64,000 nt of DNA. Source: a virus. Its lineage: Duplodnaviria; Heunggongvirae; Uroviricota; Caudoviricetes. Below, one piece after another: positions 27,001 to 30,000 of the stretch. The stretch lies in the IMG/VR virus record IMGVR_UViG_642979322_000011; one strand, given 5' to 3'. A program made the position numbers. The first letter of the stretch is position 1. Each line of letters starts with the position of its first letter.

Positions 27001-30000
27001 TCCCGGCCGGGAGGATTCATGGCATTTAAACACTATGATGTTGTCAGGGCGGCGTCGCCGTCAGACCTTGCGAAACGAATAACTCAAAAACTGAAGGAAG
27101 GGTGGCAGCCTTATGGTAGTGCGCTGATTTCGACAGCTGGTTATGGTGCGGAGTTCATCCAGCCAGTTGTGAGTGAGGGGAGCATCTCATCACCAGAGGA
27201 GCCAGGCAACCGTCCGACGACCTCAGCGCCTTCTGTTGCGCCAGAATATTACTATGTGATCGCGCTTGCTGGTCAGTCCAATGGTATGTCATACGGTGAG
27301 GGACTGCCATTGCCGGATACATTCGACAGCCCTGATCCACGTATTAAACAGTTAGCGCGTCGCAGTACGGTGACACCGGGCGGTGCAGTATGCAAATATA
27401 ACGACATCATTCCGGCGGACCATTGTCTGCATGATGTGCAGGACATGAGCCGCCTTAACCATCCGAAAGCGGACCTGTCAAAGGGGCAGTACGGAACCGT
27501 GGGGCAGGGGCTGCATATCGCCAAAAAATTGCTGCCGTTTATACCGGCGAATGCGGGCATTCTGCTGGTTCCGTGCTGTCGTGGTGGTTCAGCGTTCACC
27601 ACCGGAGCTGATGGCACATACAGTGACGCGAGTGGTGCCTCGGAGAATTCAACCCGCTGGGGTGTGGACAAGCCGCTGTATAAGGACCTTATCGGTCGAA
27701 CAAAAGCAGCACTGAAGAAGAATCCGAAAAATGTGCTGTTTGCCGTGGTGTGGATGCAGGGGGAATTTGATTTTGGCGGTACGCCGGCAAATCACGCAGC
27801 ACAGTTTGGTGCGCTGGTTGATAAATTCCGTGCAGACCTGGCGGATATGGCAGGTCAGTGCGTCGGTGGCTCTGCTGGCGGTGTTCCCTGGATATGTGGA
27901 GATACGACGTATTTCTGGAAGCAGAAGAACGAATCCACGTACCAGACGGTGTACGGCAGCTATAAAAACAAAACGGAAAAGAATATCCATTTCGTACCGT
28001 TCATGACCGATGAGAACGGGGTGAATGTGCCGACGAACAAACCGGAAGAAGACCCGGACATTCCGGGTATCGGATATTACGGTTCGAAATGGCGTGACAG
28101 CTCAGCCACCTGGACGTCACAGGACAGGGCGAGCCATTTCAGCGCCTGGGCACGCCGCGGGATTATTTCCGACCGTCTGGCAACGGCGATTCTGCGCCAT
28201 GCGGGAAGAGTGGCGCTAAACGCGGGGGTATCATCGACAGTATCAGAAGTGCGCCCGTCATCGCCTTCCGGTGCAGAAGTCACAGGCGTCACAACACTGC
28301 TCTCTTACCTTGCCAGCGAGTCAGAGGGAAGCCTGAAAGCACAGGGATGGTCAGCCAGTGGCGGCAGGGCAGAAGTGGTCAGCGATGCGGAGGGAACCGG
28401 AGGTAAGGCTGTGAAGCTGACCAAGGAAGCCGGTAAAAGCAGCTGGGTGCTGGAGTACGCCGCGGGCAACGGTGCGGCTCTGTTACAGAAAGGGGGGGCA
28501 GATTCGCTGCCGCTTTAAGGTTTCGGGAGCGCTGGCTGCGAACCAGTATGTTATGGCGTTTTACTGGCCGGTATCTTCACTGCCACAGGGCGTTGCCCTG
28601 ACCGGAGACGGGGGGAATAACCTGCTGGCAGCGTTCTACATCCAGACAGATGCAAAAGACCTGAATGTGATGTACCACAATGCGAAAGTGGCGACAAACA
28701 ACCTGAAACTGGGAACCTTTGGCGCATTTGATAACGAATGGCATACGCTGGCTTTCCGCTTTGCCGGGAATAACAGCCTTCAGGTGACGCCGGTTATTGA
28801 TGGTCAGGATGGCACACCGTTCACGCTGACGCAGTCACCGGTCAGTGCATTTGCGGCGGATAAACTGCATGTGACAGACATTACCAGGAATGCGACTTAC
28901 CCGGTGCTGATTGACAGCATTGCGGTGGAAGTGAACAGCACAGACACTGCGGCATGATAAAAAAACCGCCAGCGACAGGAATGGACGCTGGCGGTGGTAA
29001 TACCTATGGAGAAAAAATAAAGGAACGATACTTTCGTGCTCTGGTTTTTTAAATGAAAACAGTTCTTATTGTCAACAATAACGGAAAGAAATTATGACAT
29101 TTCTGAACCAGTTAATGCTGTACTTCTGTACGGTGGTCTGTGTGCTGTATCTCCTTTCGGGTGGATACCGGGCCATGCGTGACTTCTGGCGCAGACAGAT
29201 TGACAAAAGGGCCGCTGAGAAAATCAGCGCCAGTCAGTCAGCCGGAAGCAAACCCGAAGAGCCGCTCATTTAGCGGCAACTTTCTTAATCACACCTTTCG
29301 ACGAGAAAATCCCATGTCAGAAATTACATCCCTGGTCACTGCTGAAGCAGTGAAGGAAGTCCTGCGCTCTGAAGAAGTCCGGAGCGCACTGAAACAGAAA
29401 CTTCGCCATAACCTGGAAGCGCGTCTTGATGCAGAGGTTGATGCCATTCTGGATGAGCTGCTGGGCGCACCGGCAGCTCCGGAGCCGGAAGGCATCGCGG
29501 GTGAGGGGAGTGCTTCAGATAGCGGTGACCCCACACCGGACAGCGACATGATGATGTAAGCATGCGTCAGGGACCATCGGTGTGTGCCGGTGGTCTTTTT
29601 TATTGTTGTGAGCTTCCGGATTGCGGGAGACGGGGTATGTACCAGATGGAAAAAATCACAACAGGTGTGTCATACACCACGTCAGCGGTGGGAACGGGCT
29701 ACTGGTTCCTGCAGTTGCTGGACAGGGTTTCCCCGTCTCAGTGGGCGGCAATAGGCGTGCTGGGGAGTCTGCTGTTTGGGCTGCTGACATATCTGACGAA
29801 CCTGTATTTCAAGATTAAAGAAGACCGGCGTAAGCGGCACGGGGAGAGTAAGCTGATGAGCAGGAAACTCCGCTATGGTTTATCGGCTGCCGTTCTGGCG
29901 CTGATTGCCGCAGGTGCTTCTGCGCCTGAAATCCTCGACCAGTTTCTGGATGAAAAGGAAGGTAACCACACCACAGCATACCGTGATGGTGCGGGTATCT

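Follow-up and report, generated by a model that had tools for sequence, protein, structure and literature searches.

A split nanS-p gene in the argW Stx2a prophage of Escherichia coli O157:H7 TW14588: a probable one-base error in a run of G

Results

The nanS-p gene is split by one additional G

We analyzed nanS-p in a stretch of viral DNA of 64,000 nucleotides (Caudoviricetes; IMG/VR record IMGVR_UViG_642979322_000011; hereafter the window), where the gene lies downstream of stx2 and is broken by a frameshift at a run of seven Gs. The window is the Stx2a prophage integrated at argW in E. coli O157:H7 str. TW14588 (GCA_000155125.1), whose deposited record CM000662.1 is identical to the window from position 17019 on. 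TW14588 was isolated from lettuce in the 2006 Taco John outbreak and carries two Stx2a prophages, at argW and wrbA (PMC11688487). The seventh G is probably (with a probability of about 0.8, judged from assembled sequences) a base-calling or consensus error, that is, an over-called homopolymer in the 2008-era assembly CM000662.1, and not a mutation. The true genome would then have G6 and encode a normal 645-aa enzyme with DUF1737 at the N terminus, an esterase core of the SASA/SGNH type, and a carbohydrate-binding jelly-roll domain at the C terminus.

The run, read directly as GGGGGGG at 28492-28498 (+), interrupts an open reading frame (ORF) that begins with ATG at 27019 and extends for 499 codons to a TAA at 28516-28518, 20 nt past the run (27019..28518, +). 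The +1 frame continues from 28499 for 152 codons (codons 494-645) and ends with TGA at 28955-28957; the mechanical ORF call for this 3′ part is 28472..28957. With one G deleted, the gene encodes 645 aa and its product matches WP_231824840.1 of strain M1300706002 exactly, and in the intact gene the G run supplies the codons for Gly492-Gly493, so that the additional base in the deposited sequence splits the gene at codons 492-494. The truncated product is identical to NanS-p over residues 1-493, followed by six aberrant residues (ADSLPL) and the stop. A first-pass annotation of the window had described nanS-p as split by +1 G at this run, with a 499-aa ORF stopping 20 nt after it, some 150 codons going on in the +1 frame, and a product of about 645 aa upon removal of one G. 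The coordinates and ORF lengths obtained here agree with that description in every respect.

Closest relatives from the same outbreak carry G6

The exact 499-aa product (EEC27487.1, annotated as YjhS) is present on only one contig, CM000662.1, among ~15 billion proteins. Among 5426 complete E. coli genomes, nanS-p of 6535WT, 6535NalR, and M1300706002 comes closest, being identical to the window at 1938 of 1939 positions; the sole difference is their G6, which leaves the 645-aa gene intact, and the exact protein WP_231824840.1 is found on three contigs only, those of these three genomes. In the same Taco John outbreak, 6535WT was isolated from a patient in Minnesota, and it gave rise to 6535NalR and M1300706002; all three genomes were closed with PacBio RS II and Illumina data and Pilon (PMC9234449). 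No re-sequenced TW14588 is among the complete RefSeq genomes, the best matches there being the 6535 family, and re-sequencing of TW14588 by Oxford Nanopore and Illumina exists under BioProject PRJNA884395 (preprint 10.1101/2022.09.30.510420). A table of single nucleotide polymorphisms (SNPs) for two Taco John isolates gives single- to low double-digit counts, which we read, with its column headers unchecked, as no more than ~16 genome-wide (PMC4928038). At that level, far fewer than one real difference would be expected in 64 kb.

Four single-base indels without private substitutions

The window was aligned to M1300706002 over ~62.5 kb. Four indels of 1 bp separate the two: T missing at 410, G extra at 28492, G missing at 29834, and A extra at 43755. 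Beyond these, the alignment contains a 1310-bp IS629/IS1203 (insertion sequence, IS) insertion and one replaced tract at 26756-26937, and nothing else; there are no private substitutions outside that tract. Exact 81-mers with the window allele were looked up in complete E. coli genomes. The window allele was absent at 29834 in the holin gene (0/697 genomes), at 43755 in the tail-fibre gene (0/345), and at 410 on the intS side (0/309), every one of these genomes having the other allele. Three of the four indels break genes, namely nanS-p, the holin gene, and the tail-fibre gene.

The G7 allele is thus private to one assembly in this background, its closest relatives disagree with it, and it is accompanied by other private 1-bp indels without substitutions. 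We infer that the four indels are errors rather than mutations, because four private 1-bp indels with no private substitution in 62.5 kb, all within one outbreak, make a spectrum unlike that of natural divergence. For comparison, 15 SNPs and 2 indel events separate the related prophages of strains 21B8 and 93_161312. Read as errors, the four would be an over-called G6, an under-called GG, an extra A one base past A6, and a lost T one base past T6. Such contexts would fit flow-based or low-coverage miscalls. The first-pass annotation had offered a real pseudogene and a homopolymer miscall as alternatives; the second is favored by the G6 of same-clone genomes together with the three further private indels, and the first is less likely.

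Several observations weigh against an error. The case for an error is built from assembled sequences. Six other runs of at least seven bases in the window (C9, two G8, G7, C7, and A8) agree with the closed genomes, so homopolymers are not at fault throughout, and just one of the four indels lies in a long run. G7 is also present at the same run in three unrelated complete genomes, two of them of one prophage lineage. Furthermore, 6535 is not the same isolate as TW14588, and one difference at least, the 1310-bp IS629 insertion, looks real.

The opposite error, in which the closed comparison genomes would be wrong through polishing of repeats, was also considered. It fails for 410 and 43755, because these sites are essentially single-copy in each genome and their private indels are therefore not polishing artifacts of the comparison genomes, and it fails against the hundreds of genomes that agree. 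Taken alone, the nanS-p and holin sites may still be affected by such an error.

The split gene encodes NanS-p

In the protein restored by deletion of one G, Pfam finds DUF1737 at residues 3-53, SASA at 152-276, and DUF6645 at 489-607 (E = 1.4e-74). DUF6645 spans the junction, so the split is not a chance pattern of ORFs; the three-domain architecture occurs in one polypeptide only after the deletion, and the deposited sequence gives two ORFs of 499 aa and ~134-161 aa. Residues 72-393 match the structure of E. coli NanS (YjhS; 3pt5, E = 1.7e-117), the SGNH block-I motif GQSN is at residues 85-88 of the translation, and residues 423-640 share ~99% identity with 6yp6, a crystal structure of the phage phi24B NanS-p C-terminal domain. 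At the DNA level, the gene shares 98.5-99% identity with nanS-p of VT2-Sakai and of ~290 other Stx phage records. Given the position next to stx2, the domains, the matches to 3pt5 and 6yp6, and this DNA identity, the gene is that of NanS-p, a prophage sialate O-acetylesterase, with the esterase activity of the window protein predicted by homology.

In homologues, O-acetylesterase activity on Neu5,9Ac2 has been shown experimentally (PMC8065619). By taking O-acetyl groups off Neu5,9Ac2 and mucin glycans, NanS-p allows lysogens to grow on them, and nanS-p is co-induced with stx from the late promoter (PMC10462455, PMC8065619). Its C-terminal domain is a lectin-like jelly-roll in which Y510, Y515, Y540, and F611 are proposed to make up a sugar site (PMC10462455), and a 2026 preprint reports capsid decoration by DUF1737 of the phi24B homologue. 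The frameshift follows residue 493, which is 70 residues inside the crystallized domain (423-640) and N-terminal to all four aromatic residues. If the G7 were real, the product would retain DUF1737 and the catalytic core and would have no foldable binding domain.

The features and their coordinates are listed in Table 1. Within the stx2 region, stx2A occupies 25292..26251 and stx2B 26263..26532, directly upstream of nanS-p; downstream are DUF1378, DUF826, the holin gene (start 29637), and lysozyme genes, matching the annotation of NZ_CP089270.1. NanS-p of 933W (933Wp42, also L0105 or z1466) and of phi24B (vb_24B_21 = gp84) is encoded at the same site, between stx2B and DUF1378/DUF826/holin. 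Once one G is removed, the window gene has the same length of 645 aa and the same three-domain architecture as these two. It differs from them in being split by the +1 G as deposited, and its exact intact allele has otherwise been found in no genomes but the three closed ones from this outbreak.

Table 1 Features of the nanS-p region, with positions given in the window
Feature	Coordinates	Strand	Description
nanS-p 5′ ORF as deposited	27019..28518	+	499 aa; DUF1737 (aa 3-53), SASA/NanS-like esterase core (aa 72-393), first ~70 residues of the C-terminal domain
G7 homopolymer	28492..28498	+	G6 in same-outbreak genomes and nearly all other copies
nanS-p 3′ part, +1 frame	28499..28957	+	Codons 494-645 and stop; bulk of the DUF6645 jelly-roll, including Y510, Y515, Y540, and F611
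stx2A and stx2B	25292..26532	+	From ORFs and the annotation of the matching region in NZ_CP089270.1; fix the canonical late-operon position of nanS-p

Run-length variation at the nanS-p tract in other genomes

The exact 81-mer with G7 was found in 3/603 complete E. coli genomes (RM19259, 21B8, and 93_161312) and in 0/289 phage records, and G5 at the tract in 1/616 genomes (SMN152SH1, NZ_CP024618.1 2384335-2384413). Variants in run length therefore amount to ~4 of ~1520 copies in ~600 genomes, with essentially all others having G6. The nanS-p genes of RM19259, 21B8, and 93_161312 are labeled ‘frameshifted’ by the Prokaryotic Genome Annotation Pipeline (PGAP), with G7 at ~3193-3199 of loci L001, L003, and L004, respectively. 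They share with the window the G7, the tract, and the premature stop. Their backgrounds are different, the RM19259 copy being in an Stx2c prophage and the other two in stx-negative prophages, and their identity to the window is 93-98%. The genomes of 21B8 and 93_161312 were submitted separately and originate from different countries, and the G7 is common to their one stx-negative prophage lineage at a distance of 15 SNPs, which suggests a real, inherited allele and a genuine pseudogene in that lineage. Natural slippage at the tract thus probably happens, if rarely. The G7 of 21B8 and 93_161312, being common to independent assemblies, is probably real, whereas the closest relatives of the window have G6.

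These cases bear on the most serious alternative, in which the G7 of the window is a genuine slipped-strand +1 insertion private to TW14588 and one of several nanS-p copies has become a pseudogene. The product would be 499 aa with DUF1737 and the esterase but without most of the jelly-roll, at a small phenotypic cost given that other nanS-p copies remain. The same run is G7 in RM19259, 21B8, and 93_161312 and G5 in SMN152SH1, and the G7 of 21B8 and 93_161312 looks inherited, the two being 15 SNPs apart and of separate origins. Natural inactivation of nanS-p next to stx2a is common: the clone's second Stx2a prophage has IS1203 within the gene, as have many O157 strains (PMC10462455). With ~5 copies of the NanS-p C-terminal region in the strain background, loss of one should be tolerated. 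Against this stand the G6 of the three same-outbreak genomes and the company that the G7 keeps, three private 1-bp indels and zero private SNPs in 62.5 kb. We consider a private mutation unlikely on balance, though deserving more weight than any of the readings that follow.

It is very improbable that the G6 tract is a recurrent slippage hotspot at which G7 and G5 have arisen independently in several prophage lineages, TW14588 included, to give a distinct, selectable isoform with the capsid-binding DUF1737 and the catalytic core but without the carbohydrate-binding module, rather than a dead gene. Least credible of all is a functional switch, in which the run would either serve as a phase-variable contingency tract or direct programmed slippage of the ribosome or of transcription, so that a short esterase lacking the carbohydrate-binding module is made as well as the full-length protein: run-length variants do recur at the same tract in unrelated prophages and the break is close to the start of the C-terminal domain, but the rarity of the variants given above rules out phase variation, and ~1500 homologous copies in frame with G6 rule out programmed frameshifting or transcriptional slippage. 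A run of G6-7 is short for a phase-variable tract. The homologues are single in-frame ORFs of 643-648 aa (including those in PMC10462455), so neither the frameshift nor a two-frame organization is conserved; moreover, the break falls 70 residues into the 423-640 domain and at no domain boundary, and would leave an unfoldable third of a beta-sandwich.

Disrupted nanS-p copies in the clone and in O157:H7

In the second, wrbA-type Stx2a prophage of M1300706002 (locus L007, 3020-6271), IS1203 is inserted inside nanS-p near codon 557. Many O157:H7 genomes, and also the Stx2 II and PA phages, likewise have an IS1203-interrupted nanS-p, which, next to stx2a, has been described as the ‘CTR3’ variant (PMC10462455). 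These IS1203/IS629-interrupted genes resemble the window gene in being adjacent to stx2a with a disrupted C-terminal domain. CTR3 is, however, a well-supported 1.3-kb IS insertion in many independent genomes, and the window has one extra base in one assembly.

Other differences across the window

At the holin indel (29834, in the region 29637-30389), TAAGGCGG becomes TAAGCGG with one G lost. The class II holin gene, deprived of its last 5 codons, runs in frame into that of the endolysin; the resulting 250-aa holin-endolysin fusion (EEC28387.1) is found only in TW14588, and the intact 71-aa holin on at least 1000 contigs. This indel is probably another assembly error; if real, the fusion would have an effect on lysis and Stx release. 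At the tail-fibre indel (43755, in the region 43350-45300), an extra A changes AAAAAACACTC to AAAAAACAACTC and divides a 649-codon collagen-repeat tail-fibre ORF, continuous in M1300706002, into 43350..43811 and 43732..45300. The T lost at 410 changes TTTTTTATAAG to TTTTTTAAAG in single-copy intergenic DNA, 18 nt 3′ of the intS stop.

The IS629/IS1203 copy (32037-33346, 1310 bp) lies just past codon 3 of a gene for a Rha-family regulator (ATG at 32027) and is flanked by a 3-bp target duplication, ATC, at 32034-36 and 33347-49. Absent from 6535 and M1300706002, it is a candidate for a real difference within the outbreak. The replaced tract at 26756-26937 lies between stx2B and the 5′ end of nanS-p. 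It follows the wrbA-type Stx2a prophage of M1300706002, with 100% identity, and not its argW copy, and the sequence returns to the argW type between 26937 and 27453. Either the two Stx2a prophages have undergone gene conversion, or the assembly is chimeric across the stx2 repeat, which is identical in both; because all substitutions are within the tract, one such event explains them all. We also note a hypothetical gene that PGAP labels ‘frameshifted’ in M1300706002 (locus L005, 10114-10852, corresponding to ~7786-8524 in the window). The window is identical there, including a C9 run at 8377-8385, and the frameshift is therefore common to both assemblies.

Discussion

The gene is a known one in its canonical place, and its split is most likely an artifact of CM000662.1 and otherwise an ordinary private pseudogene. 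The finding carries little biological weight: nanS-p is a characterized accessory gene, present in several copies per enterohemorrhagic E. coli genome, and disrupted copies have already been documented. Even a real G7 would have a small effect, the C-terminal region being present about five times and nanS-p of the second Stx2a prophage being already interrupted by IS1203. The practical value is that of a data-quality flag, in that CM000662.1 appears to hold roughly one 1-bp indel per 16 kb here. Such indels create false pseudogenes and a false holin-endolysin fusion in an Stx2a prophage, and comparative studies with CM000662.1 as their reference could mistake them for gene loss specific to this strain.
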